DNA of 50,231 nucleotides from an uncultured Dehalococcoidia bacterium. Lineage in GTDB: Bacteria; Chloroflexota; Dehalococcoidia; Lucifugimonadales; UBA826. The DNA lies in the NCBI GenBank assembly GCA_964435605.1, contig CAYTAN010000001.1, forward strand, positions 3,278 to 53,508, written 5' to 3'. Below, piece by piece: positions 4,846-50,231 of the stretch. The stretch's first letter is position 1; each line of letters starts with the position of its first letter. The notes under the pieces were generated by a model that was given only the letters and a program-made list of their open reading frames with translations, did no database searches and was not told the DNA's origin. Position numbers and translations under genes: made by a program.

Positions 4846-4914
4846 ATGTTTGGTTTCTTGACCGCTACGGTCATCAATAAATTCTATATATGGGTTTTAC
4901 AAGTGTCAATTTTA

Positions 4915-26475: not shown

Positions 26476-27267
26476 CTATTTACCCTTAAATTTGGGAACC
26501 CTTCTTTCCACAAACGCTGACTGTCCTTCTTTGAAGTCTTCGCTGTCAAAGTTACTAAAAGGTAGTAGTGTTTCTTCCTCACTTAAGTTGAATAATGAGG
26601 GGTTGTTTACAGTGGTTGACAGGATTTTTTTATGTCGCATTTGTGATAATGGGGCAAGGGGTACCATTTCGGCGGCAAGTTTGGAAACAATATCATCTAA
26701 TTTATTTTCGGGCACTACCTGATTAACTAGGCCCATTTGCAGCGCTTCTGTAGCGTCAAATATACGACCGCTTAGTAATATATATGAAGCATTTCCAGAG
26801 CCTGCTAAATTGATTAATCTTTTCATCTCTCGATATCCAACTAAAATTCCAAGTTTGGCCACTGGAATGCCAAATTTGCTTTTTTCCGAAGCTATTCGGA
26901 TATCTGTTGCCATAGACAATTCACATCCTCCACCGACGCATATTCCATTTATCTTGGATATCGTAGGTACGGGCATATTTTCAATGGCATCAAGTGCTCC
27001 ATCAAACGCATCCGAATAGATTCGACCAGAACATGAATCTTGTCTGTTTTTCTCAAAATCTTTTATATCTGCTCCAGCAGAAAATGACTTCCCACCGGCT
27101 CCAGTAAACACTACTACTCTAATATCTTTGTCCGCACTTAAATTTGTGATTTCTTTTAGCAGTATTTTCCATCCCTCATAATCTATAGCATTATGTTTTT
27201 CAGGTTGGTTAAAAGTGATAGTGGCGATTCCTTCTTGCACATCTAAAAGAAATTTGTTGCTTTCCAT
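26476..27267 (-). CDS. enoyl-CoA hydratase/isomerase (crotonase) family protein
   Basis: 263 aa with FSAGADIKDF and CVGGGCELSMATD oxyanion-hole motifs. Confidence 0.9.
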   Translation of the reverse strand: MESNKFLLDVQEGIATITFNQPEKHNAIDYEGWKILLKEITNLSADKDIRVVVFTGAGGKSFSAGADIKDFEKNRQDSCSGRIYSDAFDGALDAIENMPVPTISKINGICVGGGCELSMATDIRIASEKSKFGIPVAKLGILVGYREMKRLINLAGSGNASYILLSGRIFDATEALQMGLVNQVVPENKLDDIVSKLAAEMVPLAPLSQMRHKKILSTTVNNPSLFNLSEEETLLPFSNFDSEDFKEGQSAFVERRVPKFKGK

Positions 27268-27293
27268 TTTTCATTCCTGACAAAGAATATTTG

Positions 27294-28061
27294 CTAATAT
27301 GATGTGTATCCGCCATCCACTGGGATAGATACTCCGGTTACGTAGTCAGATGCTTTGCTTGAAAGAAATACTGCGGTTCCTGCCAAATCATCTGGCTCTC
27401 CCCATCTCTCATGAGGTATTCGGGTAAGTATGTGATCATATCGGTCTCTAAAATTGTCTTTAAGACCCTGAGTGAGATCAGTGTGAATCCACCCAGGGAG
27501 TATGGAGTTTGCCTGAATGTTGTCTTTCGCCCATGATACAGCTAGGGTTTTCGTCATTTGCACTATTCCACCTTTGCTCGATGCATATGCAACAGCCCAA
27601 TCAAGCCCAAAAATGGATGTCATAGAGCCTATGTTGATTATTTTGCCACCACCATTTTTTTTCATATGCGGATAAACTTCTTTAGAACATATAAATGCGC
27701 CAGTGAGATTTATGTCCACTACCTTATTCCATTCAGTTAAAGTGTATTCTTCAGGCCGTTTTCTTATACCGATACCGGCATTATTTATTAATATATCGAC
27801 GTTGCCGAATTTTTCGACCGACCTAGATATCATGTTTTGAACAGATGATTCATCGGTCACTTCGACCTCGATGCCTTCGCAATTGGTCCCCAGACCCTTC
27901 AATTTTGAAATTGACTCATCAGTTTTAGTTTTATTCCTAGCAGCAATGATAATATTGGCGCCTGCCTCGGCAAGACCGACAGCCATACCGAAACCGATGC
28001 CACCGTTTCCACCAGTTATTAAGGCTGTTTTTCCTTTCAGGTCGAATAATTTAGACTCCAT
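27294..28061 (-). CDS. short-chain dehydrogenase/reductase (classical SDR)
   Basis: It has TGGNGGIGFG (TGxxxGxG), NNAG and YASSK (YxxxK) motifs. It is 255 aa long. Confidence 0.9.
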   Translation of the reverse strand: MESKLFDLKGKTALITGGNGGIGFGMAVGLAEAGANIIIAARNKTKTDESISKLKGLGTNCEGIEVEVTDESSVQNMISRSVEKFGNVDILINNAGIGIRKRPEEYTLTEWNKVVDINLTGAFICSKEVYPHMKKNGGGKIINIGSMTSIFGLDWAVAYASSKGGIVQMTKTLAVSWAKDNIQANSILPGWIHTDLTQGLKDNFRDRYDHILTRIPHERWGEPDDLAGTAVFLSSKASDYVTGVSIPVDGGYTSY

Positions 28062-28105
28062 ATTTGCTCCTTGATCGTAGTTGTGCTGTTAATTGATTAT
28101 ACCTT

Positions 28106-28453
28106 TCATCTAATCGGACCGTTTGGCCTGGAGGCATCAAGTAACGCCAAAGTTTTTATGCCTAGAGGCGACCCCTGTTTCCTTCTTTTGGCTAAAAGAT
28201 CGAGAGACAGGTTGGATAAGTTTGGTTTTTCATTTACATGTTTACCATTTTGTTGGGCGCAATTTCTTAATAACACTTTTGCAGGCCTGATCGTTTTGTA
28301 CACACACTGAAAGGCATAAGGGCAAATGTATGAGAAACATGTGGTTCTCTCTTGATGTGACCGATTTAGATCTGATGTTGTTTTGGTGAACGGGTTAGAA
28401 AGGTATTTTTCCAGACGTTCTGTAGAAGTGCCAATGTCATTATTTGAGTCCAT
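28106..28453 (-). CDS. hypothetical 115-aa protein (doubtful gene)
   Basis: This is the only ORF of 60 aa or more on the operon strand in a 530-bp gap. No RBS or family motif was recognised. It contains four Cys (C-x4-C-x5-C-x15-C). Confidence 0.3.
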   Translation of the reverse strand: MDSNNDIGTSTERLEKYLSNPFTKTTSDLNRSHQERTTCFSYICPYAFQCVYKTIRPAKVLLRNCAQQNGKHVNEKPNLSNLSLDLLAKRRKQGSPLGIKTLALLDASRPNGPIR

Positions 28454-28485
28454 TCAATAAATTTTCCTAATGTGACTTATTGAAT
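28452..28485. repeat. perfect 9-bp inverted repeat ATTCAATAA-N16-TTATTGAAT
   Basis: Read directly from the sequence. The left arm abuts and overlaps the putative start codon (28451-28453) of the 115-aa ORF. It could be an operator or an RNA hairpin. Confidence 0.6.
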
Positions 28486-28591
28486 AGCCATTTATCGAGC
28501 ATTGAGGGGCTCCACGCTAAGTTAAGTCTAAGGAGTGCCTTGCATGAAATCTAGTTGAATTTGGACTATTTCGATCGACTTTAAGTCAGGA

Positions 28592-29305
28592 TTATCGGAA
28601 TCGCTGTCCTTCAGTCTTGATAGATTGGAGTTTCCCGTTGTTTAATTCCTTTACATCATCCGCCATTGAAAGCAGAGTTGAGTCGTGAGTTACGGTAATT
28701 ATGGTTATTTTTTGCTCTGTTACCACTTCTCTAAACAAACCAAAAATTGACTTTGAGTTATTCGAGTCTAACTCTCCTGTAGGTTCATCGGCTAAGATTA
28801 GTGGAGGCTTTACCACAATTGCCCTTGCTATCGATACGCGTTTCTGCTCACCGCCAGATAACTCATATGGCCTATGGCTTTTTCTTTTTTCCAAACCTAC
28901 GATCTCTAACGCTTCCATGGTTAGTGATGATCTGTCCTTTACTGAGTAGCCGGCAATACGAAGAGGTAACTCAACATTTTCATATGCTGACAAAAGAGGT
29001 AGTAAACCGAAAGATTGAAATACAAAACCAACCGTATGTCTTCTCAACTGTGTAAGTTCAGCATCGCTCATATTTGACAGGTTTTGTCCGTTTATAGTGA
29101 CACTACCTTTTGTGGGCGCGTCTAGTCCCGCCAACATATTCAAAAATGTAGTTTTGCCAGATCCTGATCTTCCGACAATGGCTATAAAATTTCCTTCAGA
29201 CGCCTCAAAATCTATATGGTCAAGTATGGTAATCTCTCCATCTGAAGACGGGTATGTTTTGACTAAACCGGATGTTTTGAGCAAAGCAGGATTTTCTCTA
29301 TCCAT
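28592..29305 (-). CDS. ABC transporter ATP-binding protein (MacB/LolD/FtsE-like)
   Basis: It has Walker A GRSGSGKTT, the signature LSGGEQKR, Walker B ILADEPTGELD and an H-loop VTHD. It overlaps the upstream ATPase gene by 8 nt. Confidence 0.92.
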   Translation of the reverse strand: MDRENPALLKTSGLVKTYPSSDGEITILDHIDFEASEGNFIAIVGRSGSGKTTFLNMLAGLDAPTKGSVTINGQNLSNMSDAELTQLRRHTVGFVFQSFGLLPLLSAYENVELPLRIAGYSVKDRSSLTMEALEIVGLEKRKSHRPYELSGGEQKRVSIARAIVVKPPLILADEPTGELDSNNSKSIFGLFREVVTEQKITIITVTHDSTLLSMADDVKELNNGKLQSIKTEGQRFR

Positions 29306-30191
29306 CAGTAGTTTCTGGTCCGTATATTTTGAGATGTTTATCGAATAATTCTAATTTCGCCTTGCCTGTAATGTCCAAATCTTCTAGCATGCTGACTGGT
29401 ATTTGCAATCTTCCATTAGTGTCAATAAGGGTGAATTCATCCAATTGGCGGTTTTCGGATGCTTCGCCTGATATCCGACGGTACTCGTCGTTTCTTATGA
29501 TTTCTTTGGACGTTTTACCGTCCTGTATTAAAACTACCCTTCGTACTTTGTATGCTATCTGTGGGTCATGGGTGACTATAATGATTGTGGTCCCTAATTC
29601 GCTGTTAATTTTTCCAAACAGGTCTAAAATATCTGAAGCAGTTTGATCGTCTAATTCCCCTGTTGGTTCGTCAGCCAACAGGATTGAAGGCTGATTGGCT
29701 AGTCCAACTGCTATAGCAGTTCTCTGTTGCTCCCCTCCGGACAGGTTTTCTGGGGTCTGATGAGCTCGCTCTTTCAGCCCAACAAGATCTAGTAACTCTA
29801 ATGCCGCGTTTTTTATAGATTCTCCACTTCCTAGATTATTTAGCTTCATAGGTAGTTGGACGTTCTCGAAGGCAGTTAAATATGGAAACAAGTTACGACT
29901 AGTTTGTTGCCAGACAAATCCTATTTCAGATCTCCGGTAATATTCAGCCTCTTTATCGGAGAAATGGACAAGATCTCTTCCGGTCACTTCGATAGTTCCT
30001 GCAGATGGTTTATCGTACCCTGCTAATATATTTAGGAAGGTAGTTTTCCCACTTCCACTTGCCCCAACAATGGCTACAACTTCTCCCTGGTCTATAGTGA
30101 GGTCTAGACCTCGTAGAGCAACTACCTCAAGGTCTGCAACTTTAAATATTTTGAATATGTCGGTGCAAATTATGTGCGGTACTTGTGACAT
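29298..30191 (-). CDS. ABC transporter ATP-binding protein (MacB/LolD-like) with a C-terminal extension of about 70 aa containing an AbrB/SpoVT-like motif
   Basis: It has Walker A GASGSGKTT, LSGGEQQR, LLADEPTGELD and VTHD. Beyond the NBD, residues about 252-291 read EFTLIDTNGRLQIPVSMLEDLDITGKAKLELFDKHLKIY. Confidence 0.9.
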   Translation of the reverse strand: MSQVPHIICTDIFKIFKVADLEVVALRGLDLTIDQGEVVAIVGASGSGKTTFLNILAGYDKPSAGTIEVTGRDLVHFSDKEAEYYRRSEIGFVWQQTSRNLFPYLTAFENVQLPMKLNNLGSGESIKNAALELLDLVGLKERAHQTPENLSGGEQQRTAIAVGLANQPSILLADEPTGELDDQTASDILDLFGKINSELGTTIIIVTHDPQIAYKVRRVVLIQDGKTSKEIIRNDEYRRISGEASENRQLDEFTLIDTNGRLQIPVSMLEDLDITGKAKLELFDKHLKIYGPETTDG

Positions 30192-30274
30192 TTATTAGTC
30201 ATTCACCGGGATAAGACTATTGAATTTTAGTCCAGCGTAAATTTTTTGATTGACAGGTCTGTCTTGTTCCCAGC

Positions 30275-31399
30275 TCACAACCCGATCTTTTTGGCCACTT
30301 TTTCAAGATGAAAGTTAGAGTCACCAAACATTATTTCAGCAGCTTTTGCTCTCCTAGAATAGAGTTGCATGTTGTGTTCTTTTGTAAAACCGATAGCACC
30401 ATGGGATTGATGCCCTAGCGCGCATACTCGCCTATAAGCCTCACTTACCCAAGCTTTGGCCATCGCGACTTCTCTTTCTGCTGGAAGCCCTTCCGACAAT
30501 CTCCAGGCGGCCTGGTAGGTGATAAATTTGGACCCCTCGACATCTGTTGCCATGTTGGCACAATGATGCTGTATTGCTTGAAAACTTCCGATTGGTCTAC
30601 CGAATTGAGTTCTCTGCTTGGCGTATTCTACGGTCATGTCCAAAACGCTCTGCCCACCTCCTGACATCTCAGCGCATTTACCGATCGCTCCCCACTGCAA
30701 TACTTTTTCAATTGTGGCCCAGCCTTCATTTGCTTTTCCTAGCAAAGAGTTTTCGTCAACAGAAACATTTTCGAATATTACTTCCGACTGCTTGTCTGAT
30801 GCTATGGTTTTCAAGTCTGTAAGACTAATTCCGTCAGCATTGGACGGTACGATGAACAAACTAATATCCTGTTCGTTTTCGCCTGTTCTAGCTGCCACTA
30901 CTATGAAATCTGACACATTAGCGTTTGTAACGAATAATTTAGTGCCGCTAAGAACGTACTGGTTCCCAGATTTTGTAGCCGTTAGCTCGATACCCGCAGG
31001 ATCCCATCTTGCAGAAGGTTCCGTAAGTGCTAGAGTGGTGATAATCTGACCTTCCGCTATTCTTGGCAAGTACTCTGATTTCTGCTCCTCTGTGCCGGCA
31101 TCCATTATGGACATGCCACCAAGAAGGACGGTAGAAAAATATGGACCTGGCAACATGTATCTGCCCATTTCTTCAAGTAATATTGTTAGATCCTGGAACT
31201 GTAGCTCTACTCCACCGTATTTTTCAGGGATAATTAACCCCAACCAACCCTGCTCGGCTATTTTTGACCATATTTCTGGGGTATAGCCTCGTTCATCTTC
31301 TTCCATCTCTCTGACATATGTGTCTGTGCATTCAGTCTCTAAGAATTCTTGAGCACTATTCTTAAGCATCTGTTGAGTTTCATTTAGTCCGAGGTCCAT
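30275..31399 (-). CDS. acyl-CoA dehydrogenase family protein lacking both canonical catalytic-base positions
   Basis: 374 aa with the ACAD fold pattern (YGG, middle beta domain, FGRPIGSFQAIQ). The C-terminal IMFGDSNF replaces (I)YEGT, and VLQWGAIG replaces the LDxER helix-G site. Confidence 0.88.
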   Translation of the reverse strand: MDLGLNETQQMLKNSAQEFLETECTDTYVREMEEDERGYTPEIWSKIAEQGWLGLIIPEKYGGVELQFQDLTILLEEMGRYMLPGPYFSTVLLGGMSIMDAGTEEQKSEYLPRIAEGQIITTLALTEPSARWDPAGIELTATKSGNQYVLSGTKLFVTNANVSDFIVVAARTGENEQDISLFIVPSNADGISLTDLKTIASDKQSEVIFENVSVDENSLLGKANEGWATIEKVLQWGAIGKCAEMSGGGQSVLDMTVEYAKQRTQFGRPIGSFQAIQHHCANMATDVEGSKFITYQAAWRLSEGLPAEREVAMAKAWVSEAYRRVCALGHQSHGAIGFTKEHNMQLYSRRAKAAEIMFGDSNFHLEKVAKKIGL

Positions 31400-31441
31400 T
31401 GATGTCGTCTCCTAATGTGGTGGGTTCTTCCCGTTTACTTG

Positions 31442-32617
31442 CTATCCTCGTGGCAATCCAAGGCCACGTGTAGCGATCACGTTTCTCTGTATTTCTGATG
31501 TTCCGGCCGCAACCATCCCGCCAAAAGAGCGCAGGTATGCATTTTCTATACGACCTCCCAATGGAGCCCATTTCGAGCCGGGGTCAAGCTGCCCAAATGG
31601 GCCCATAATTTTTACCCCCAGCCCGTATAACCGATTGAGCATTTCAGTTCCGTATGCTTTAGTTATAGATGCTTCTTTATTGGGTATCATGTCCTGGCTT
31701 TGCATCCATGCGACGTTGTAGCACATTAATCTAACAGCCTCAATTTGTACCGCCAGTTCCGATAGTTCATTTTTAATTACTGGATCGTCAGCCAGTAGCC
31801 GGCCATTTTTTTTGTTCTCCTTGCAGAAATTAACCAAATCCTCAAGGACTCTTTTTGCTCTTGCAGGGCGGTCAACCCCAGAACGTTCAAAGTCCAATAG
31901 GGCCGCTCCGACATACCATCCTCTGTCCTGCTCTCCTACCAGATTCTTTTTAGGTACCCTGACATTATCAAATGTAACCAGGCCGCGATATGCGTCCCAC
32001 ATCATGGGTATCTTTTCTACAGTAACCCCGTCTGTGCCGTCCAACTCTGTTAGCAAAAAGCTGATTCCGCGATGTTTAGGCGCATCTGGATCTGTTCGAG
32101 CCAACATGAACATCCAGTCTGAGTCTGCGTGGGCCGAATTCCAAATTTTTGAACCTGTCACCACAAAGTCGTCTCCGTCTTCCACGGCTCTAGTTTGCAA
32201 AGACGCTAAGTCCGAACCAGAGTCTGGTTCAGAATATCCCTGAGACCAGTTGATCTCAGCTCCAGCTATCTTAGGTAGAAATTCTCTTTTTTGCTCGTCA
32301 GTACCGTAAAGCATGAGAATGGGACCTACCATACGGATCCCTGCGTCACCGGCAGGTATACCCCTGTAGGCCATCTCTTCGTTAAAAACGACTTGCCTCA
32401 TATGGCTCGCTGCCTGGCCACCATATTCCTCAGGCCATGCCATGGTCAGCCACCCTTTCTCTCCCAGTTGTTTTTTGAACTGACGGACCAGAATGGAATC
32501 TTTCTCATCTTCAGGGTCTAGGTCTTCCTGAGACCATTTCCAAGGTAATTCTTTGTCTACAAAATTTACAATTTCTGATCGAAAGTCCTCATCTACAGAT
32601 TCGAATCTAAAATCCAT
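31442..32617 (-). CDS. acyl-CoA dehydrogenase (IVD/LCAD-type catalytic Glu position)
   Basis: 391 aa with WPEEYGGQ, CQ/SQGYSEPxSGSD, LLDFERSG and AAGTSEIQRNVIATRGLGLPRG. Confidence 0.9.
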   Translation of the reverse strand: MDFRFESVDEDFRSEIVNFVDKELPWKWSQEDLDPEDEKDSILVRQFKKQLGEKGWLTMAWPEEYGGQAASHMRQVVFNEEMAYRGIPAGDAGIRMVGPILMLYGTDEQKREFLPKIAGAEINWSQGYSEPDSGSDLASLQTRAVEDGDDFVVTGSKIWNSAHADSDWMFMLARTDPDAPKHRGISFLLTELDGTDGVTVEKIPMMWDAYRGLVTFDNVRVPKKNLVGEQDRGWYVGAALLDFERSGVDRPARAKRVLEDLVNFCKENKKNGRLLADDPVIKNELSELAVQIEAVRLMCYNVAWMQSQDMIPNKEASITKAYGTEMLNRLYGLGVKIMGPFGQLDPGSKWAPLGGRIENAYLRSFGGMVAAGTSEIQRNVIATRGLGLPRG

Positions 32618-32644
32618 ACTTATCTATCCTTAAATTTGTGACTA

Positions 32645-33817
32645 CTATCCTCTGGGTAATCCAAGCCCTCTTGTAGCGATTATATTCCTCTGGATTTCTG
32701 ACGTTCCGGCTGCGATAGTTTCCGAGACGTTGCTAAGGTACATATGATTTATCCGACCTTCTAATGCGGCGTGTTTTGAGCCTGGAGCTAATTGCCCATG
32801 TAACCCCAGCATTTGCATACCCACCTGGCTGATATGCTGTTGTAACTCTGTACCAAAAACCTTTCCCATAGATGATTCCTTGTTCGGTACGAGACCCTCA
32901 CTTTGCATCCATGCTATGTTATAAGAAATTAACCTGCTTACATCGACCTCGATAGCTAGATCGGCCAGCCTGTTTCTGACAACTTCATTATCAGCAAGCA
33001 ATTTGCCGTTGAGGCTATTTGATTTGGAATAGTCTGTAAGTTCTTCTAAAGTTTTACGGGCTCCTGCAGAATAATCTACACCTGATCTTTCAAAATCCAA
33101 TAATGTTGCCCCAACATACCATCCTCTGTCCTGTTCCCCAACCAAGTTTTTTTTGGGAACTCTGACATTGTCGAATGTAATCATATTAAAGTTATGGTCA
33201 CCAGCCATGTTTACGATTGGGTTGACCGTTAGGCCTGGGGTATTCATGTCGCAAAGTAGGAAACTTATACCTCTGTGTTTTGGGGCATCTGGATCTGTTC
33301 TCGTGAGAACCATGATGTGATCCGCTCTATGGGCACCGGATGTCCATATCTTTGTACCATTTATTACAAAGTCGTCCCCGTCTTCCACGGCCCTAGTTTG
33401 AAGTGAAGCTAGGTCTGAACCAGATTCAGGTTCCGAGTAACCTTGACACCACTGTACTTCCCCTTTTGATACCGGAGGTAAGAATTCTCTTTTTTGTTCC
33501 TCTGTTCCATGTATCATCAAGGTGGGAGCCATCATTCGAGTGCCAAAAATGTCTCTGCCCGGAGCCCTGTTATATGACATTTCCTCAGCAAATATGACCT
33601 GCATCATATGTGATGCGTTTTGGCCCCCATACTCTTCGGGCCATGCCATAGTCAGCCAACCCTTTTGGGATAGTTTCTGTCGCATGTCAAGAGTAAACTT
33701 CCAGTTTTCGTCAGGATCTTCTCTTTGAAAATCAGAAACATTTGCTAATTCATTCGTTAACCAGGAGGACAGTTCAGACCGAAAAGTTTCCTCTTCATCA
33801 GTAAATTTAAAATCCAT
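32645..33817 (-). CDS. acyl-CoA dehydrogenase (tandem paralog of 31442-32617)
   Basis: 390 aa with the same motif set (WPEEYGGQ, LLDFERSG, AAGTSEIQRNIIATRGLGLPRG). Long runs of DNA-level similarity to the neighbouring gene are visible. Confidence 0.9.
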   Translation of the reverse strand: MDFKFTDEEETFRSELSSWLTNELANVSDFQREDPDENWKFTLDMRQKLSQKGWLTMAWPEEYGGQNASHMMQVIFAEEMSYNRAPGRDIFGTRMMAPTLMIHGTEEQKREFLPPVSKGEVQWCQGYSEPESGSDLASLQTRAVEDGDDFVINGTKIWTSGAHRADHIMVLTRTDPDAPKHRGISFLLCDMNTPGLTVNPIVNMAGDHNFNMITFDNVRVPKKNLVGEQDRGWYVGATLLDFERSGVDYSAGARKTLEELTDYSKSNSLNGKLLADNEVVRNRLADLAIEVDVSRLISYNIAWMQSEGLVPNKESSMGKVFGTELQQHISQVGMQMLGLHGQLAPGSKHAALEGRINHMYLSNVSETIAAGTSEIQRNIIATRGLGLPRG

Positions 33818-41447: not shown

Positions 41448-42503
41448 TTGAAATTCGGTATATTTTGGCAGGTTCCCGGATATGAAGGATCGTCCGTTCC
41501 GGATAGGCATTGGGAAACAGTTGATGAAATTGAGTTGGCAGATGATCTAGGGTTCACACAGGCATGGCTGGCTGAGTCCCCATTCTACCCTACAAGGCCT
41601 ATGTCCCAGCCATTATTGGTTGCCAGTGCGGCAGCCCAACGGACTAATAATATTAGGTTTGGCACATTGGCGGCCCAGATTCCACTCCATCACCCTGTTG
41701 ATTATGCTTCTACCATTGCAACTTGCGATATTTTAACGAATGGGAGATTTGATTTATGTGTAGGAGGTAGATTTGGCAGTAAGGCGAGCCAGGTAGTAGG
41801 AATGTCAGAGGACATCGATAATTCACAAAGCCGAGAAATGGTGTCTGAATACGTTGACATACTTAGGCAGTCTTGGACTAATGAAAGATTGACCTATAAA
41901 GGTAAATATTGGAATTTTGATGATGTACCAGTCATACCTAAGCCAATGCAGAGACCATATCCCTCTCTTTTGATGGCTGCCAACAGTGATTCCTCTTTTG
42001 AGTTCGCTGCTTCTCAAGGCATGGGTGTTATAGGTACCATGCTCAGCCAGCCTCTGGAGAATTTGAAGATGCACAGCGATACTTTTCACAAGGTTAAAAA
42101 TAGATTGAAATCAAACGAGGGGAAACAACCGTTTCACATTGCCATTTCTTTTTTTGTTGCGGAAACTAGAGAAAAGGCCCAAAAGATTATGAGGGAGAAC
42201 TGGAGAGATTCTGACGTAATATCTGATGGCCCTCCCGTTCATTCTTCTGCCATAGGAGGGGGGAGACATGATTTCTCTTCAGGGGCTGGTGGTTGGGCTA
42301 CTTGGAATTTTCAGTCCGCACTTGAGCACTGCATATACGATTCTCCCGAAGGATGCATTGAGAGATTGGCAAGAATAATGGCTACGGTAGATAACGTAGA
42401 CCAGATAATTTTGGAATTTAATCGAAGAGGTAGGATTTCTAGTGAGGTGGTCAAAAAATCAATGAAACTATTCGGAGATAAAGTTTTGCCATCGCTCGCC
42501 TAA
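41448..42503 (+). CDS. LLM-class (luciferase-like) flavin-dependent oxidoreductase
   Basis: 351 aa with a TTG start preceded by GAGG. It begins with the typical MKFGIFW...GF..AWLAE N-terminus. Confidence 0.85.
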   Translation: MKFGIFWQVPGYEGSSVPDRHWETVDEIELADDLGFTQAWLAESPFYPTRPMSQPLLVASAAAQRTNNIRFGTLAAQIPLHHPVDYASTIATCDILTNGRFDLCVGGRFGSKASQVVGMSEDIDNSQSREMVSEYVDILRQSWTNERLTYKGKYWNFDDVPVIPKPMQRPYPSLLMAANSDSSFEFAASQGMGVIGTMLSQPLENLKMHSDTFHKVKNRLKSNEGKQPFHIAISFFVAETREKAQKIMRENWRDSDVISDGPPVHSSAIGGGRHDFSSGAGGWATWNFQSALEHCIYDSPEGCIERLARIMATVDNVDQIILEFNRRGRISSEVVKKSMKLFGDKVLPSLA

Positions 42504-43643: not shown

Positions 43644-44855
43644 TTAACCTACAACCTCCTTAAAATACCTAAGGTAATTTATGCCTAACAGTTTTTTTAG
43701 TTCATCTTCATTGAAACCTTTCTCTGCTAGTTTTACGGTAATATTTGGCCAGTCACCGAAGTTGGAATATCCTTCTATTCTGTAATCTGGGGTAAGCCTA
43801 TGCTCCGGGCGAAAGCCACCCCAGTTAAATTCATCTGGATGCTTTTTGAAATATTCGATTTGTCCTGGCATGCTTTCAGGAAATTCATGATCATATATGA
43901 GGCCAGTTTCAGGTCCATTAGCACAAATATCAGTACCTATCCCCACATGGTCAATGCCCATTATGTTCACAAGGTGGGTTACATGGTTTGCGAAATCATC
44001 TAGCGTAGCTATACTGCCGTTGTTCTGTATAAAACCAGGTACAATAACTACCCCAAAGAATCCCCCTTTTTCGGCGATCGCCTTTGCTAAATCGTCGTCT
44101 TTTCCTCTATCGTGAAAACAGATTGAATTACTTGAGGAATGAGTCACAATTATTGGAGCTGAGGATATTTCAAGGGCATCCCAGCCAACTTGTTGGCTAC
44201 AATGACTAACATCAACCGCCATATTCATCTCATTTAGTTTTTGGACTACAGTTTGACCAAAATATGTCAATCCGGTTTTATACCGTTCCGTACACCCGTC
44301 ACCAACTAGGTTACGCAAATTATAAGTAAGTTGGACTACCCTAAGGCCCAAATTGTAAAAATAGTCTATTTTTGAAAGGTCTGTACCGAATGGCAATGTG
44401 TCCTGGAAGTCGAGAATTAGGCCGTGTTTGCCCGAACTATAGACAGTCTCGATATCTTCAGCTTTGAGGATGAGTTGTAACTCGCCTTGCAGGGCATCAA
44501 TGTAACCTCTGGCCTGAGCTATTCCCTCTGTTGCACTCTCAAAAGCCTTCTCGATTTCTATACCAGCACTGTATGTTCCACTGGCTACACTAACTCCTGA
44601 ACGGTGCCAGAGGGATAAATATTGCTCCCTAGCTGATTCAGAATCGCGAATTTCATCCATGGCAATTTTGGACAATTGATTGGATGCTTGAGCCCTGGTG
44701 TATCCGGCCTTATCCATATCCAGAAGGTCTAGTTTCATTCTTTCTGTAAATAGAAATCCTGAAGTCGCAGGAGGTTGCTTACTGTCAATTACAAGGGCTT
44801 CTTGATGTAGCTGTAAAGCCTCTTGGTCTGATAGATGTCGTACTTGTCTTTTCAA
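43644..44855 (-). CDS. membrane-dipeptidase-like (M19 family) metallopeptidase
   Basis: 403 aa with a TTG start preceded by GGAG. It has ALVIDS, MAVDVSHCS, IVTHSSS and HVGIGTD motifs typical of renal-dipeptidase family enzymes. Confidence 0.8.
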   Translation of the reverse strand: MKRQVRHLSDQEALQLHQEALVIDSKQPPATSGFLFTERMKLDLLDMDKAGYTRAQASNQLSKIAMDEIRDSESAREQYLSLWHRSGVSVASGTYSAGIEIEKAFESATEGIAQARGYIDALQGELQLILKAEDIETVYSSGKHGLILDFQDTLPFGTDLSKIDYFYNLGLRVVQLTYNLRNLVGDGCTERYKTGLTYFGQTVVQKLNEMNMAVDVSHCSQQVGWDALEISSAPIIVTHSSSNSICFHDRGKDDDLAKAIAEKGGFFGVVIVPGFIQNNGSIATLDDFANHVTHLVNIMGIDHVGIGTDICANGPETGLIYDHEFPESMPGQIEYFKKHPDEFNWGGFRPEHRLTPDYRIEGYSNFGDWPNITVKLAEKGFNEDELKKLLGINYLRYFKEVVG

Positions 44856-44953
44856 GAAACAGGCTCCTTTGAACTTACTGAGTATTGATTGGTTGGATGT
44901 TAACAGAAGAATTTACGATAGTATGTTTTCGTGTTCCGTTATAGCTGTATAGT

Positions 44954-44982
44954 TTGACTAAACGTTAAGTTGTGTAAATAAT
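44954..44982 (+). promoter_or_regulatory. putative promoter of the lyase/CoA-transferase module
   Basis: TTGACT (44954-44959), a 17-nt spacer, then AATAAT (44977-44982). A 6-bp inverted repeat AAGTTG-N10-CAACTT overlaps the -10 region. Confidence 0.35.
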
Positions 44983-45025
44983 CAACTTCATACGATCGAA
45001 GGTACCTTTTTTGAAGGATGTTTAA

Positions 45026-45967
45026 TTGACTACAGTTTCAGGTTTTGAAGATTCCCATTTAGATAGGTTGAAGGCTGTTAGAAGGTCTAAATTAGAGATT
45101 GGGACTAGTTCAGAATTTACTTTTGAAGATGCTATTGTTAGTGGTGCGGACACAATAGTACTGTGTGATTCGTATAATCAGACAAGCACTTCGGTGAATC
45201 AAAAAACTGAAGTTCTTGAGCTTGTTGAAGTGATTAAGAGTAAGAATCTGGATGTGCTGATTAGGCTGTCAGATTTGTCTGATCAATCTTTAGAACTTTG
45301 GTTAATCAGGGGTATATCAGGGGTCGCTATAGAAGTGGAGGATGCCAATGAAGTTGTCGATATTTCTAATCGTATCTCAAAAATAGAAATATCAAAGGAT
45401 ATACCTCAAAGTACCTTCGAATTGGATTTGGTTTTCGGAACGGCCAGTTCAATCATTGACTGCTTTGATATAGCACGCTCTAGCTCTAGAATAGCATCCT
45501 TAAATTTGGATGAGCCAAAATTATACAAAGAGCTAGGTATCCCGTTTACAGGTGAAGAAGACGCTCTGGCTTTCTCTAGAGGACGACTTATTGTTGCAGC
45601 GCGGGCAGCCAAAATTCAGTCACATGGCCTCGCATTTATTAAAGATCATGAAAACAGGTGGTCATTTGATGAACAAGTAGCTCTTTCAAGAAAAATGGGA
45701 TTTTCTGGGGCATATTGTAAGTCTTTACATGAGATTCCTTATCTAAATAAAGGATTTGCTCCTAGTGAGTCTGAATATGAGAGGGCTTTAAAGGTTATTC
45801 AAACTATGGATAAAGCTTTCGAGATGGGATTAGGTGCCGTCACCCTTGGCGGGAGTGAAATGATAGATATAGCTATGGTGAGGCATGCTGAAAATACGAT
45901 TTTCAGACACACAGCCGTACAGGCAAAAGAGGCTCAATTCAGACCTACTGAGGAGTCAAATGATTGA
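45026..45967 (+). CDS. CitE/HpcH-HpaI-like TIM-barrel protein, divergent paralog 1 (catalytic signature not conserved)
   Basis: 313 aa with a TTG start preceded by GAAGGA. It is colinear with CitE-like lyases in spacing, but the motifs read IVLCDSYN, LIRLSD, AIEVEDANEV, LVFGTASS and LNLDEPKLYKELG. The C-terminal lid region (GAVTLGGSEMIDIAMVRHAE) resembles CitE. Confidence 0.6.
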   Translation: MTTVSGFEDSHLDRLKAVRRSKLEIGTSSEFTFEDAIVSGADTIVLCDSYNQTSTSVNQKTEVLELVEVIKSKNLDVLIRLSDLSDQSLELWLIRGISGVAIEVEDANEVVDISNRISKIEISKDIPQSTFELDLVFGTASSIIDCFDIARSSSRIASLNLDEPKLYKELGIPFTGEEDALAFSRGRLIVAARAAKIQSHGLAFIKDHENRWSFDEQVALSRKMGFSGAYCKSLHEIPYLNKGFAPSESEYERALKVIQTMDKAFEMGLGAVTLGGSEMIDIAMVRHAENTIFRHTAVQAKEAQFRPTEESND

Positions 45968-46728
45968 TGAATAAACATGTTAGGTCACTATTGTTAGTTG
46001 CGGCAGGGGATGAAAACCTGGATCAAAAATTGAGTTGGGATCCTGATGCTGTCGTTTTGGACTTGACCGACTTGATACATCCTTCCTACTTTGATCAAGC
46101 AAAGGAACTTATCCCAAATCAAATATCTCTATTAGGAAGCAGAGAGATTTTTTCTTTGGTTCGGATGAGTATGGAGCAATTATCTGATGATTTGGGTGCG
46201 TTTGTTGATGCAGGTGTTGATGCACTGATGTTAAGTGGGTTAGAGGAATCTTCTGATATTGAAAGTGTAGAACAAAAATTAACTGCTTTGGAATCGGAAA
46301 GAGGAATTGAAGTAGGTTCCACTAAATTGATTCCATATTTGTCTTCAATGTCAGGTTTATTTAATGCTTCTTCAATAATAAAGGATAGTTCCAGAATAAT
46401 TGCTATTACTATCGGGGTAGGTGACATGGCTTTTGACTTATCTGAATCAGAAGATAAGGAACTTTTTTTCTATACGGGCCCAAATCCAAGGATCTCGTCT
46501 CCTGAATTTCTAATTACACGTACTACCATCATGGCTCAGTGTAAAAAAGGAATTGATGTTTTAGGTGTACTGGGTACTACTATTGCCCCGGGCTTCGCCA
46601 ACAGCGATCATTTGATCGTTACAGCGAACAGGTCTGCGAGGTTGGGCATTAAAGGGGCGCTTACCCTTCACGAGGAAGGTTTAGTTGCTTGCCGGCAAGC
46701 TTTTAATGTATTTAGCAAAGAAAGGTAA
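45967..46728 (+). CDS. CitE/HpcH-HpaI-like TIM-barrel protein, divergent paralog 2 (truncated, catalytic signature partly lost)
   Basis: The ATG overlaps the upstream TGA (TGATG). The motifs are VVLDLTDL, LVRMS, LMLSGLEES, LIPYLSSMSG and IGVGDMAFDLS, with CitE-like spacing. It lacks the C-terminal lid domain. Confidence 0.6.
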   Translation: MNKHVRSLLLVAAGDENLDQKLSWDPDAVVLDLTDLIHPSYFDQAKELIPNQISLLGSREIFSLVRMSMEQLSDDLGAFVDAGVDALMLSGLEESSDIESVEQKLTALESERGIEVGSTKLIPYLSSMSGLFNASSIIKDSSRIIAITIGVGDMAFDLSESEDKELFFYTGPNPRISSPEFLITRTTIMAQCKKGIDVLGVLGTTIAPGFANSDHLIVTANRSARLGIKGALTLHEEGLVACRQAFNVFSKER

Positions 46729-47694
46729 ATGATGGAAATTAGGATTGAACGCTCCAGTTTGATAATGCCTGTTAATGTGTCACGATTTGTTGAAAAGGCC
46801 TGGACTAGAGGAGTGGAACAAATCACTTTGGATTTAGAGGATTCTGTAGCTCCAAATCAGAAAGAAGATGCTAGAAAGCTGGTTAAAGAAGCTATAGGAA
46901 TTGCAGCCAGAGGGGGAGCTTCAATATCGGTCCGAATTAATAAAGATAATATTGAAAAAGATTTAGAGGCGTCCATATGGCCAGGTCTTTATGGCATATT
47001 GATGACCAAAGTTGAATCAGTTGAGGAAGTTCAGTTGGCGGATAAGTATATAGGTGATCTTGAGCGAGAAAGAGGTATAGGGAAAGGAACTATTAAGATA
47101 AAGCCGTTGATAGAATCTGCGATCGGAGTTTGGAATGCCTTTTCAATCGCGACTGCGAGTGAGCGTATATGTCAATTTGGCGATGTTGCCGCAGGTGACA
47201 CAACAGCAGATTTAGGAATTGAAATGGCTGGTGAAGTTGATCAGCTTTTTTATTGCCGTGGTGAGGTTGATTTGATAGGGAGATCATTAGAAATGGGTGG
47301 AGAAGGCCCCTGGCAGCCTGTAGAAGGTTCGATGTTTCAATATGGAGATCCTGAACCGGTACTAAGAAAAGCTAGGGAAAACCGGCGTAGAGGAGTGCAT
47401 GGTTCATTTGGGATTCATCCATCAGTAGTACAACCAAACAATGAAGGGCTTACCCCCACCAGAAATGAAGTGGAGGAAGCAAATAACCTTATCGATTCGT
47501 ATAATGCGGCCTGGGAAAGAGGAGAATCATATGCGGTGTTTAACGGCAGGATGATATTTGGGGACAACGCACATTGGGCAAAAGAATATATTCACTATGC
47601 CGAAGCATGTTGGGCCAAGGATAAGGAGAAAGCTGAAGTGATTAGTAGTTTGAAGCGTGAAGAATCCGAATCGAATAGGGAGATTGATGGTTAG
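46729..47694 (+). CDS. CitE-like acyl-CoA lyase (citryl/malyl/citramalyl-CoA lyase beta-subunit family), canonical motifs
   Basis: The ATG lies immediately after the upstream TAA. The motifs are LDLEDSV, SVRINK, LMTKVES, PLIESAIGV, AAGDTTADLG and FGIHPSVV. Confidence 0.85.
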   Translation: MMEIRIERSSLIMPVNVSRFVEKAWTRGVEQITLDLEDSVAPNQKEDARKLVKEAIGIAARGGASISVRINKDNIEKDLEASIWPGLYGILMTKVESVEEVQLADKYIGDLERERGIGKGTIKIKPLIESAIGVWNAFSIATASERICQFGDVAAGDTTADLGIEMAGEVDQLFYCRGEVDLIGRSLEMGGEGPWQPVEGSMFQYGDPEPVLRKARENRRRGVHGSFGIHPSVVQPNNEGLTPTRNEVEEANNLIDSYNAAWERGESYAVFNGRMIFGDNAHWAKEYIHYAEACWAKDKEKAEVISSLKREESESNREIDG

Positions 47695-48871
47695 AGGTAT
47701 TCTAGATGATGTTACGGTAGTTGAACTCGCTCAAGATGTTGCCGGACCTTACGGGTCAAAGTTGTTAGCAGACCAGGGTGCGAATGTTATTAAAGTAGAA
47801 CCTATAAGTGGAGATACTTCGAGACAGTGGGGCCCATACCCTGATGATTCTCCTCATTTAGAACGAAGCCTGAGTTACGCCTATTACAATACTAATAAGA
47901 AAAGTGTCACTTTAAATATAGATAGTGACAAGGGTAAGTCTTTATTGAGGAGATTGGTTGTAGAGGCAGATATTTTGATCGAGGATATAGCTCCTTCAAG
48001 AAAATCTGTTTATGGTCTTGAAGATTTATCCGTTGTAAAACCGGATCTGATCCACGTATCTGTAACACCCTTTGGAGTAACAGGCCCTTATCGCGACTAT
48101 GCTGGTGCTGAAATAATTTATCAGGCTATGGGTGGATTTATGCACCTAAGCGGTGAGCCGGATAGAGGGCCTCTACAGATTGCTCTGAATCAAGGCCAGG
48201 TTATGGCAGGTAGAAATGTAGCTTTATCTACTATGGCTGCAATATATATGCAAACAGGCCAATTTGTGGATGTCTCCATCATGGAATCCGTCGCTGTTCA
48301 GCCTCCGTTTCACATATTAACCTACACGCACACTGGAATTATTTCTGGTCGGGGCTTGGGGGCGGGCGGAATTGATATATTTGGCGGTGATTATCTGGAG
48401 ACAAAAGATGGCCATATTTGCATGACCACAGAAGGACGTAGATCATGGGAGGATTTGGCACTTTTGCTTGAAATACCTGAATTATCTTTAGATCAATTTG
48501 CTGATCCTCAGGATAGAGAGAAACATAGAAAAGCACTTGAAGAATTGGTACTTCCTGAATTGAAGGAGAAAGATACTAAAGAGCTGTTTCATAAGGCAAT
48601 GAGAGAAGGTTTTGTGTTTGGTATGGTACAGAGTCCCCAAGATCTGCTGGAATGTGAACAACTTGAAGAGCGAGGGGCATGGTCCGAAATAGAACACTCG
48701 GAATTAGGGAAATTGAAATATCCAAATCCAGGTTTCAACATGAGTGCAATAGCGGCAGAACCTGACCGTCCAGCTCCTTTGCTTGGGGAACATAATTCAT
48801 CTATCTACACTTCAATGCTGCAAATATCTCCTGATGAGTTAAAAGAATTGAAATCAGAAGGGGTCGTATAG
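47687..48871 (+). CDS. family III CoA-transferase (CaiB/BaiF/Frc family)
   Basis: MVRGILDDVTVVELAQDVAGPYGSKLLADQGANVIKVEP is the typical N-terminus. I prefer ATG 47687, which overlaps the upstream stop by 8 nt, over the upstream GTG at 47657. Confidence 0.88.
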   Translation: MVRGILDDVTVVELAQDVAGPYGSKLLADQGANVIKVEPISGDTSRQWGPYPDDSPHLERSLSYAYYNTNKKSVTLNIDSDKGKSLLRRLVVEADILIEDIAPSRKSVYGLEDLSVVKPDLIHVSVTPFGVTGPYRDYAGAEIIYQAMGGFMHLSGEPDRGPLQIALNQGQVMAGRNVALSTMAAIYMQTGQFVDVSIMESVAVQPPFHILTYTHTGIISGRGLGAGGIDIFGGDYLETKDGHICMTTEGRRSWEDLALLLEIPELSLDQFADPQDREKHRKALEELVLPELKEKDTKELFHKAMREGFVFGMVQSPQDLLECEQLEERGAWSEIEHSELGKLKYPNPGFNMSAIAAEPDRPAPLLGEHNSSIYTSMLQISPDELKELKSEGVV

Positions 48872-50231
48872 ATGGTTTCAACAAACATTATTAAGAACGC
48901 GACACTATCTGGCGTAAGAGTTTTATGCATTGAAGATCTTATAGCCTTACCGTGGGGGACTATGTACTTGGCCGATTTGGGAGCCGATGTTATCAGAGCT
49001 GAGTCGCATACACGCCTTAGAGCTCGCGCTTGGGGCCCGTTTCCTAATGGTGTGGCAGATCCAGAGAAGTGGTGGAATCAGGGTGGTAGCCATGGACTCT
49101 ACTATCGGAACAAAAAAAGCCTTACATTAGACCTGACAAAACCTGAAGGTATTCAGCTACTGAAAGAATTAGTTAAGGTAACCGATATTGTCGCCGAAAA
49201 TAGTCGGCCGGGTGTTATGGATAGACTTGGTATTGGTTATGACACCTTGAAGCAAATCAAACCAGATCTAATCATGATAGGAAGTTCCGGATTTGGACAA
49301 ACAGGCGATTGGAATAGTTATGGTGCTGTGGCCCGCATTATCGATGGCATTTGCGGTATGTCTTATACAACTGGCTACAAAGACGATGGCCCTGTAAGAG
49401 CGAATCCTTCATACATGGATATAACTACAGGATGGAATATGGTGTTGTGTTCATTGTTGGCTCTTCATCATCGTCGTAAAACCGGTGAAGGTCAGTATAT
49501 AGACCTGTCCATGTATGAAACAGGAACGACTTGTATTGGTCCTGCTCTATTGGATGAACAGGTTAACCACCGGAAGATAAATAGGATTGGGAATGGGCAT
49601 TCCAGGTTAGCGCCCCATGGTTGTTACCCATGTGTTGGGAAAGATAGATGGGTGGTAATAGCGATTGAAACTGACATTCAGTGGAATAGTTTTAAGGAAG
49701 CTATGGGCAGTCCGAATTGGGCTGATGATGATCGGTTTGCTTCTGTTGCGGGACGGTTAAAGCATTCAGATAAACTTGATGATCTGATATCAAAGTGGAC
49801 GAAAGATAAAGCAGATAAGGAATTGACTGAGACACTGCAGTTTCAAGGGATACCTTGTTCTTCGGTTTACAATGCACGAGATTTATTGACTGATGACCAT
49901 CTGAAATCTCGTAAATTCTTTGAACCATTAGAAAGGATTCAAGAGTCAGATGTAGGAGTAAAGCCATACGTTGGTAGATCGTTTAAGATGTCAAATACTC
50001 CAGCTATGAAACAAAGTGTTGCTACGTTGGGAGAGCACAACAGAGACATATTAGTCGATTTATTGGGTATATCGGATCAGGAAATAGATTCCTTGCATGA
50101 AGATCAAATTATAGGTTGGAAACCAATTGGGCCAGAGGCTGTAACTCCAGGCGGAATTTCCCGCGTTATGGTTGGTAATGATGCTGTGTCAGACCCTGAC
50201 TTTGAGAGAGTTAATGAACTTCATGCTGATC
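48872..50231 (+). CDS. family III CoA-transferase (CaiB/BaiF/Frc family), 3' end outside window
   Basis: This ORF is not in the ORF track because it has no stop. The ATG lies 1 nt after the upstream TAG. My manual translation is open to the window end: MVSTNIIKNATLSGVRVLCIEDLIALPWGTMYLADLGADVIRAES...GHSRLAPHGCYPCVGKDRWVVIA. Confidence 0.85.
   Translation, partial: MVSTNIIKNATLSGVRVLCIEDLIALPWGTMYLADLGADVIRAESHTRLRARAWGPFPNGVADPEKWWNQGGSHGLYYRNKKSLTLDLTKPEGIQLLKELVKVTDIVAENSRPGVMDRLGIGYDTLKQIKPDLIMIGSSGFGQTGDWNSYGAVARIIDGICGMSYTTGYKDDGPVRANPSYMDITTGWNMVLCSLLALHHRRKTGEGQYIDLSMYETGTTCIGPALLDEQVNHRKINRIGNGHSRLAPHGCYPCVGKDRWVVIAIETDIQWNSFKEAMGSPNWADDDRFASVAGRLKHSDKLDDLISKWTKDKADKELTETLQFQGIPCSSVYNARDLLTDDHLKSRKFFEPLERIQESDVGVKPYVGRSFKMSNTPAMKQSVATLGEHNRDILVDLLGISDQEIDSLHEDQIIGWKPIGPEAVTPGGISRVMVGNDAVSDPDFERVNELHAD

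Follow-up and report, generated by a model that had tools for sequence, protein, structure and literature searches.

What do three consecutive genes of one enzyme family encode together when only one of them carries a recognizable catalytic barrel? The question is raised by the stretch of DNA analyzed here (the window; 50,231 nucleotides [nt] from an uncultured Dehalococcoidia bacterium), which holds on its + strand the genes for three CitE-like proteins: P1 (45026 to 45967; 313 amino acids [aa]), P2 (45964 to 46728), and P3 (46729 to 47694; 321 aa). Two genes for family III coenzyme A (CoA)-transferases, CT1 and CT2, follow. An earlier interpretation of this DNA (here, the sequence-only reading) held that P1 and P2 have lost the catalytic signature that P3 keeps and that they may be protomers of a hetero-oligomer. 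Both open reading frames (ORFs) exist, and all motif strings quoted for them are present in the stated order. On the basis of homology, lost residues, and purifying selection, we consider the P1 and P2 barrels very probably noncatalytic, which would make both proteins pseudoenzymes. P3 lacks the catalytic residue of its lid, which P1 has kept. The three proteins thus probably form a heterotrimer whose single active site would combine the P3 barrel with the P1 lid.

Active-site residues of the three paralogs

All three proteins belong to the HpcH_HpaI family (Pfam PF03328; bit score = 32.4 for P1, 48.0 for P2, and 77.0 for P3), and each passes the gathering score (cutoff = 25). The top NCBIfam match for all three was TIGR01588, the CitE equivalog (P1, 82 bits; P2, 63 bits; P3, 114 bits; cutoff = 443). 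The best scores against the malyl-CoA lyase model NF041626 (41 bits; cutoff = 500) and the (S)-citramalyl-CoA lyase model NF038242 (RipC_Ccl; 72 bits; cutoff = 375) were those of P3. Because every equivalog cutoff was widely missed, the substrates of these models are not transferable to P1, P2, or P3. A true citrate lyase is ruled out by the missed TIGR01588 cutoff together with the lack of CitD or CitF domains among the scanned window ORFs of at least 150 aa, a scan that a CitD of about 100 aa would escape.

Single-chain AlphaFold2 (AF2) models of P1 and P2 were built on 50-sequence alignments. The P1 model (predicted local distance difference test [pLDDT] = 86) comprises a barrel and a lid, with a hairpin at residues 272 to 280, and the P2 model (pLDDT = 84) is an eight-strand barrel that ends where the lid would start. 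The alignments also gave P2 no lid, in agreement with the sequence-only reading, which had P2 ending before its C-terminal lid. Foldseek placed both models on malyl-CoA lyase, CLYBL, and citramalyl-CoA lyase structures (P1, best match 4l9z_A, template modeling [TM] score = 0.74 over the full length; P2, TM score = 0.80 to 0.81 to the barrels of the malyl-CoA lyase [MCL] structures 4l9z and 4l9y), and P3 matched malyl-CoA lyases in the PDB at E = 7e-28. Since P1 and P2 each form a complete eight-strand barrel in the AF2 models, we rule out that they are the parts of one split gene. On the evidence of Pfam, AF2, Foldseek, and selection (see below), P1 is a CitE-like subunit whose barrel is degenerate and whose lid is intact, and P2 is a lidless CitE-like barrel subunit. 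PDB matches and residue alignments identify P3 as a canonical barrel whose lid is without the catalytic Asp.

The active site of this family is described for R. sphaeroides MCL, whose numbering we use for reference (PDB chain 4l9y is offset to native + 21, as confirmed in the alignments). Glu141 and Asp168 bind Mg2+, the DLED-box residues Glu44 and Asp45 hold two Mg-bound waters, and Asp42 holds Arg76; Asp299, on a beta-hairpin of the neighboring protomer's C-terminal lid, is the presumed proton donor/acceptor (PMC3832036). Conservation of the Mg ligands, Glu44/Asp45, the Arg, and the lid Asp extends across the whole superfamily and to malate synthases, and activity requires a trimer in which the lids are swapped (PMC3832036). 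We mapped these residues by pairwise phmmer alignment to PDB chains, by alignment of ortholog-derived profile hidden Markov models (HMMs) to 4l9y, 5ugr, 5vxc, 1sgj, 4l7z, and 6kin, and by MAFFT alignment with 45 canonical relatives and with a 37-sequence panel. All methods agreed on the same columns for P1, P2, and P3, and the motif correspondences that the sequence-only reading had drawn between P1, P2, and the CitE-like signature were correct by all of them. A register shift is ruled out: phmmer, the profile HMMs against six PDB chains, and the two MAFFT alignments concur, and no shifted position in the profile alignments to solved lyases restores the Glu, the Asp, or the DLED box.

All six barrel residues are present in P3: D35, E37, and D38 of its DLED box (46831 to 46842), equivalent to Asp42, Glu44, and Asp45; R69, equivalent to the conserved Arg76 at the enolate/oxyanion; E129 for Glu141; and D157 for Asp168. 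Only in P3 do the alignments give a complete Mg-binding pair of Glu and Asp. The P1 box is replaced by DSYN (residues 48 to 51; 45167 to 45178), with D48, Y50, and N51 at the positions of Asp42, Glu44, and Asp45; among orthologs, D48 is invariant, position 50 is Y or K, and position 51 is N, D, or G. At the Glu141 position stands Gly138 (45437 to 45439), an invariant Gly in six P1 orthologs, and at the Asp168 position stands Lys165, the end of a D162-E163-P164-K165 stretch (45509 to 45520). P2 reads DLTD (residues 33 to 36; 46060 to 46071), with D33 and D36 equivalent to Asp42 and Asp45 and with Thr35 replacing the box Glu (no P2 ortholog differs at T35 or D36). Its Glu141 equivalent is Ser127 (46342 to 46344; Ala in the 50%-identical ortholog), and it retains the Asp168 equivalent as Asp154 (46423 to 46425), invariant in all P2-type proteins examined.

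The sequence-only reading had the DLED box and the metal Glu replaced in both degenerate proteins. That much stands, but P2 keeps D33 and D36 of the box as well as the metal Asp (D154), and only P1 has lost both ligands. The Arg, held to be kept in both, is indeed present in the window copies (P1 R80 and P2 R67) but is not conserved among the orthologs of either: the position is Lys in other P1 orthologs and Gln in the divergent, 50%-identical P2 ortholog. Across the wider families, the same position is R, K, W, H, or D in P1-type and R, Q, or S in P2-type proteins, and the Glu141 position is G, A, or D in P1-type and D, T, S, A, N, or K in P2-type proteins. With superfamily-conserved barrel residues lost, variable replacements, and purifying selection, P1 and P2 are unlikely to be autonomous lyases, in line with the sequence-only reading.

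The P1 C-terminal lid (residues 244 to 300; 45755 to 45925), identified in the alignments and in the AF2 model, contains the beta-hairpin and a catalytic-type Asp281 (45866 to 45868) in the motif GGSEMID. By profile HMM, Asp281 falls in the column of the lid Asp in 5ugr, 5vxc, 4l9y, and 1sgj and is thus the Asp299 equivalent. In P3, the residue aligned with the lid Asp of these four structures is Phe277 (47557 to 47559), so that the earlier statement that P3 keeps the family signature holds for all barrel residues but not for the lid. Among 121 P3-like proteins, the lid position is Asp in 113, Phe in 6 (the window P3 orthologs only), and Thr in 2. In the same set, the DLED box, Arg, Glu, and Asp show little or no variation, and the residues that follow Phe277 vary. 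No single chain of P1, P2, and P3 unites a competent barrel with a competent lid. Separately, two 282-aa proteins from Alphaproteobacteria (P0044 and P0045), which are canonical CoA-ester lyases, have Glu in place of the lid Asp; one source names them (S)-citramalyl-CoA lyase. Such an Asp-to-Glu substitution in the lid is described for the malyl-CoA thioesterase cluster (PMC3832036).

Selection, regional conservation, and related arrays

Orthologous arrays were found on five metagenome contigs and in one marine Chloroflexota metagenome-assembled genome (MAG) (L001, L002, L003/L004, L005, and L006 [PBDQ01000018]). Relative to the window copies, the P1 orthologs are 98% to 57% identical, and P2 identity falls as low as 50%. 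All copies are intact ORFs in six loci that span saturated synonymous divergence, with no stop or frameshift. The ratio of nonsynonymous to synonymous substitution rates (dN/dS; Nei-Gojobori, unsaturated pairs) was 0.17 to 0.26 for P1, 0.13 to 0.20 for P2, and 0.07 to 0.13 for P3. At the protein level, P1 and P2 evolve at about twice the rate of P3, yet they remain constrained. We conclude that purifying selection acts on both P1 and P2 and that neither is a pseudogene.

Conservation is unevenly distributed within each protein. In the comparison of the window with L004, the most divergent ortholog, the lid is the best-conserved region of P1 (77% identity versus 44% in the N-terminal half of the barrel), and its motif GGSEMID(I/V)AMVRH is invariant down to 57% overall identity. 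The lid of P3 is the least-conserved region of that protein (61% versus 78 to 86% in the barrel). The best-conserved part of P2 is a specific insertion with the helix that follows it (residues 165 to 192; FYTGPNPRISSPEFLITRTT; 46456 to 46539), at 75% identity versus 44 to 48% elsewhere. This element is absent from canonical relatives and common to the P2-type proteins P0192, P0195, P0196, P0198, and P0201. Its core is FYTGPNPR(I/V)SSPEF (residues 165 to 179; 46456 to 46500), with low AF2 confidence at residues 167 to 178. We regard the insertion as a candidate inter-subunit contact or lid substitute.

Beyond the orthologs, three-gene CitE-like arrays recur in a Chloroflexi genome (L009; GCA_016210285), a Dehalococcoidia MAG (L010), and Candidatus Entotheonella (L007). 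L009 has the same gene order as the window, followed by two CoA-transferases. In these three arrays and in a further array, L015, exactly one protein carries all six barrel residues. P1-type proteins always retain the MID lid, and P2-type proteins are without a lid or have a remnant without the Asp. The arrays form a series of lid loss: all lids are intact in Entotheonella and L010, the P2 lid is truncated in L009, and the lid Asp of the canonical, P3-type subunit is lost in the window clade and in L015. The genome scan recovered one Chloroflexota MAG and Entotheonella, and the metagenome scan with the P1 profile recovered close marine relatives only.

The two P3-like proteins with a lid Thr appeared to be encoded by solitary genes, a would-be counterexample that was overturned by P1- and P2-like ORFs in L015. 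There, the canonical subunit has the lid Thr, and two downstream ORFs of the same operon that have no Pfam match at E <= 10 match the P1 and P2 profiles. The first (289 aa; 4870 to 5739) matches the P1 profile with an hhalign probability of 99% (E = 5.8e-18) and keeps an RMIDIA lid; the second (231 aa; 5742 to 6437) matches the P2 profile at 96% (E = 2.8e-9), with the insertion present and no lid. Together with an ORF of L008 (9842 to 10519), these highly diverged P1-like and P2-like subunits have no or sub-threshold Pfam matches, and standard annotation misses them. By these comparisons, the lid Asp of the canonical subunit has been lost twice independently, each time beside a P1-type partner.

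An exhaustive HMM search with the P2 profile returned few P2-type clusters; next in rank came a sister type, with lidless forms among its members, and three natural fusions. These fusions (P0194, 645 aa; P0199, 612 aa; P0202, 638 aa) contain two HpcH_HpaI domains each, a degenerate CitE-like N-terminal domain (its lid reduced or absent in two) and a fully canonical C-terminal domain. In Entotheonella, the E1-type protein appears nearest to the P2 type, by motifs and profile ranking only. One-to-one orthology of E1 and E3 with P2 and P1 was considered and dropped, as BLAST is ambiguous (75 to 82 bits either way).

A proposed composite active site and its alternatives

We propose that the three proteins are ancient paralogs of a CitE-like enzyme of the malyl-/citramalyl-CoA lyase type. 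They would most likely assemble as a pseudo-symmetric heterotrimer, or as two such trimers paired, that has just one complete active site. As a rule of the family, a protomer's lid closes the barrel next to it and supplies that barrel with the catalytic Asp. Because a barrel that combines the Mg2+ site with the Arg and an intact DLED box occurs only in P3, and the lid Asp only in P1, the sole complete site would pair the P3 barrel with the lid of P1. A sole complete site in a three-membered ring would in turn set the order P1 to P3 to P2 to P1, each lid lying over the next barrel. In such a ring, the P1 lid would complete the P3 site, the P3 lid, its Asp lost, would cover the dead P2 barrel, and the lidless P2 would leave the dead P1 barrel uncovered. 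The decayed elements, the P3 lid Asp and the whole P2 lid, would then be exactly those that serve dead barrels. Selection would keep the noncatalytic barrels of P1 and P2 for assembly, and P1 also for its lid. A two-subunit, cotranslated family III CoA-transferase would presumably make the hydroxyacyl-CoA substrate from the free acid.

The loss of the lid Asp from P3 and its retention in P1, the asymmetric conservation, the recurring arrays, and the fusions all point toward the hetero-oligomer that the sequence-only reading had suggested, and we put the probability of the full heterotrimer with its composite site at roughly 0.6. Physical trimer formation, ring order, the inactivity of each protein alone, and the pathway are what we infer from these sequence comparisons. 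The broadest form of the proposal is an even bet: an obligate pseudo-symmetric heterotrimeric C-C lyase that arose by reciprocal degeneration after two duplications, with a composite P3-barrel/P1-lid site and P2 as a lidless spacer, conserved in marine and other Chloroflexota, accompanied by less degenerate arrays in Entotheonella, and with the incapacity of the single chain reached twice independently. The canonical subunits of L009, L010, and Entotheonella retain their own lid Asp, and the degenerate partners therefore predate strict dependence; their original role may have been structural.

Several observations weigh against this model. The physical association of the three proteins is deduced from their sequences, and the ring order solely from the pattern of surviving parts; in the fusions, long linkers connect a P2-like to a canonical domain, which makes them silent on that order. 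The degenerate sequences align at only 20 to 27% identity, though several methods concur. The BLAST ambiguity over whether degenerate subunits are P1 or P2 orthologs extends from Entotheonella to L010. The remaining points, a possible homotrimer and invariant residues at former metal sites, also feed two alternative explanations.

One alternative is that P3 is complete by itself as a homotrimer or homohexamer, with another general acid/base replacing the lid Asp, and that P1 and P2 are accessory proteins that give no catalytic residues. No barrel residue of P3 is missing, and constraint on it is stronger than on P1 or P2; what the lid Asp does in lyases is termed presumed (PMC3832036); and the canonical subunits of L009, L010, and L007, having their own lid Asp, could act as active homotrimers, with the degenerate paralogs in some other role. 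We nevertheless consider a self-sufficient P3 unlikely. The lid Asp is present in 113 of 121 relatives and was lost only beside an encoded P1-like partner with an intact MID lid, on two independent occasions; the P1 lid is the best-conserved part of its protein, with Asp281 invariant; and in malate synthase G, the equivalent Asp-to-Asn mutation abolishes activity (PMC3832036). The accessory roles that would go with it (regulators, scaffolds to the CoA-transferase, or substrate-channeling partners) are doubtful to the same degree.

It is less probable still that P1, P2, or both work autonomously by a new chemistry on the old barrel, with a metal-independent or single-carboxylate site, for instance as a hydratase, isomerase, or thioesterase of the same pathway. 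Purifying selection on both proteins would fit such a role, and a pathway step may be missing, given that the operon has no hydratase gene. The invariant D33, D36, and D154 of P2 leave room for a residual or altered metal site, and the cluster of D162, E163, and K165 at the former metal site of P1, invariant in orthologs, lacks an explanation under the composite-site model. However, the former catalytic positions vary across the P1-type and P2-type families, the best conservation lies in the P1 lid and the P2 surface insertion rather than at the barrel mouths, and P2 has no lid to close any site. That P1 and P2 are decaying duplicates, whether functionless pseudogenes or fast-evolving relics, is hardly credible: their protein-level rate, their weak Pfam scores, and the L015 relatives below Pfam detection would suit decay, but the reading is effectively refuted by dN/dS values of 0.13 to 0.26 and intact ORFs in six loci, and long invariant motifs, conserved translational coupling, and homologous subunits in distant Chloroflexota and Entotheonella speak against it as well.

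The operon, its CoA-transferases, and known systems

The three lyase-type genes are followed by CT1 (47687 to 48871; 394 aa; Pfam CoA_transf_3 at 3e-80), whose ATG overlaps the end of P3, and by CT2 (48872 to 50231), identified by its PDB match and its L004 ortholog, which begins right after the CT1 stop. The end of the window cuts CT2 about one codon before its stop; the L004 ortholog has 454 aa. The junctions read TGATG (P1/P2), TAA-ATG (P2/P3), ATGGTTAG (P3/CT1), and TAG-ATG (CT1/CT2). Start and stop codons thus overlap or abut across all five genes, which therefore form a tightly coupled operon. For P2, the likelier start is the ATG at 45967 (253 aa), which overlaps the P1 stop as TGATG, rather than the TTG at 45964 (254 aa): a GAGGAG ribosome-binding site lies 11 nt upstream, and the P2 orthologs have 253 aa and begin with MG/MR-K. 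Upstream of P1, a 170-bp intergenic region (44856 to 45025) presumably contains the promoter of the five-gene operon. It separates P1 from a divergently oriented gene of the M19 membrane dipeptidase family (43644 to 44855, - strand), an arrangement also found in L001, L004, L005, and L006 and not in more distant arrays.

CT1 and CT2 look like a catalytic/noncatalytic pair in their own right. Where 4ed9, SUGCT (9br7), and Frc (10uh) have the catalytic Asp of their GYD motif, CT1 has Glu142 and CT2 has Ala. The best PDB match of CT2 is chain B of the heteromeric benzylsuccinate CoA-transferase (9fn0), which has Gly at the catalytic Asp position. In L008 and L015, CT1 and CT2 are fused into a single protein (831 and 844 aa).

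The rest of the window is ordinary chromosome (UvrB, RuvABC, GroEL, DnaE, a 2-oxoacid dehydrogenase complex, and acyl-CoA dehydrogenases), and scanning it against Rfam yielded one tRNA but no relevant match. On the - strand, positions 26476 to 33817 hold three tandem acyl-CoA dehydrogenase paralogs, then two ABC transporter ATPase genes, a short-chain dehydrogenase/reductase (SDR) gene, and an enoyl-CoA hydratase gene. An F420/FMN luciferase-like oxidoreductase is encoded apart from this stretch, at 41448 to 42503. Such an acyl-CoA metabolism, rich in paralogs, along with the match to the Chloroflexota MAG (L006), hints at a marine heterotroph of SAR202-like type. The neighbors of the arrays differ: the window clade has the M19 dipeptidase, L009 a glyoxalase and a DAO-family oxidoreductase, and L015 acyl-CoA dehydrogenases; these neighboring genes gave no substrate assignment.

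If the composite-site model is true, hundreds of Chloroflexota annotations as citrate lyase beta or CoA ester lyase would denote subunits and not enzymes. Genome annotation names all CitE-like copies alike, and some subunits, as in L015, escape Pfam entirely. P3-type genes expressed alone for biochemistry would then fail. The arrays would also offer a tractable case of the passage from a homomer to an obligate heteromer by complementary loss, with intermediate stages in the comparative series, and the operon would mark an uncharacterized pathway from acid to CoA ester to cleavage in abundant marine Chloroflexota.

The closest known systems are the malyl-CoA, beta-methylmalyl-CoA, and (S)-citramalyl-CoA lyases (R. 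sphaeroides, 4L9Y and 4L9Z; M. extorquens, 5UGR; Chloroflexus, 4L7Z and 4L80), which are the best sequence and fold matches of all three paralogs. They combine a (beta/alpha)8 barrel with a swapped C-terminal lid, and their Mg, Arg, and DLED residues recur in the P3 barrel. The solved CitE-like entries that we retrieved contain one lyase chain sequence each, whereas here there are three chains, each without a different element. CitE-like lyases are described as trimers or dimers of trimers, and heteromers are nowhere mentioned (PMC3832036). Our full-text literature searches found no heteromeric or pseudoenzyme-containing CitE-like lyase and nothing pertinent on CitE of SAR202, which is no proof of absence. 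In the CitDEF complex, CitE is of the same superfamily, but the complex consists of unrelated subunits and not of CitE paralogs.

The operon logic resembles activation and then cleavage of itaconate or malate. In itaconate degradation, the (S)-citramalyl-CoA lyase (Ccl/RipC, human CLYBL, and M. tuberculosis Rv2498c) is found beside an acid-activating family III CoA-transferase, as here, and PDB matches of the citramalyl-CoA lyase type include 5vxc, 8khl, 9nzb, and 3qll. The Ccl/RipC system differs in that the window operon has no hydratase, its lyase is distributed over three genes instead of one, and the RipC_Ccl score falls short (72 bits versus 375). For the transferases, the benzylsuccinate CoA-transferase 9FN0 offers a parallel, being heteromeric with one noncatalytic chain; CT1 and CT2 are adjacent, and CT2 is likewise without the catalytic Asp. 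This likeness concerns the neighboring transferase and not the lyase, and CT1 has Glu rather than Asp. SmtAB of Chloroflexus is a further heteromeric family III CoA-transferase with one noncatalytic chain.

Obligate partnerships between live and dead paralogs are known elsewhere. In the trypanosome S-adenosylmethionine decarboxylase (AdoMetDC)/prozyme pair, a dead paralog is the obligate partner of a live one. The RNase III pairs of the editosome (PMC9508840) are likewise heteromers with a paralogous pseudoenzyme. Compared with both, the system proposed here would differ by comprising three paralogs, by reciprocal losses that span a domain-swapped site, and by a live subunit that is not complete either. 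It would exemplify natural hetero-oligomer entrenchment by complementary loss across a domain-swapped active site, in which the fold and chemistry are familiar and the subunit organization, with its reciprocal losses, appears to be undescribed.

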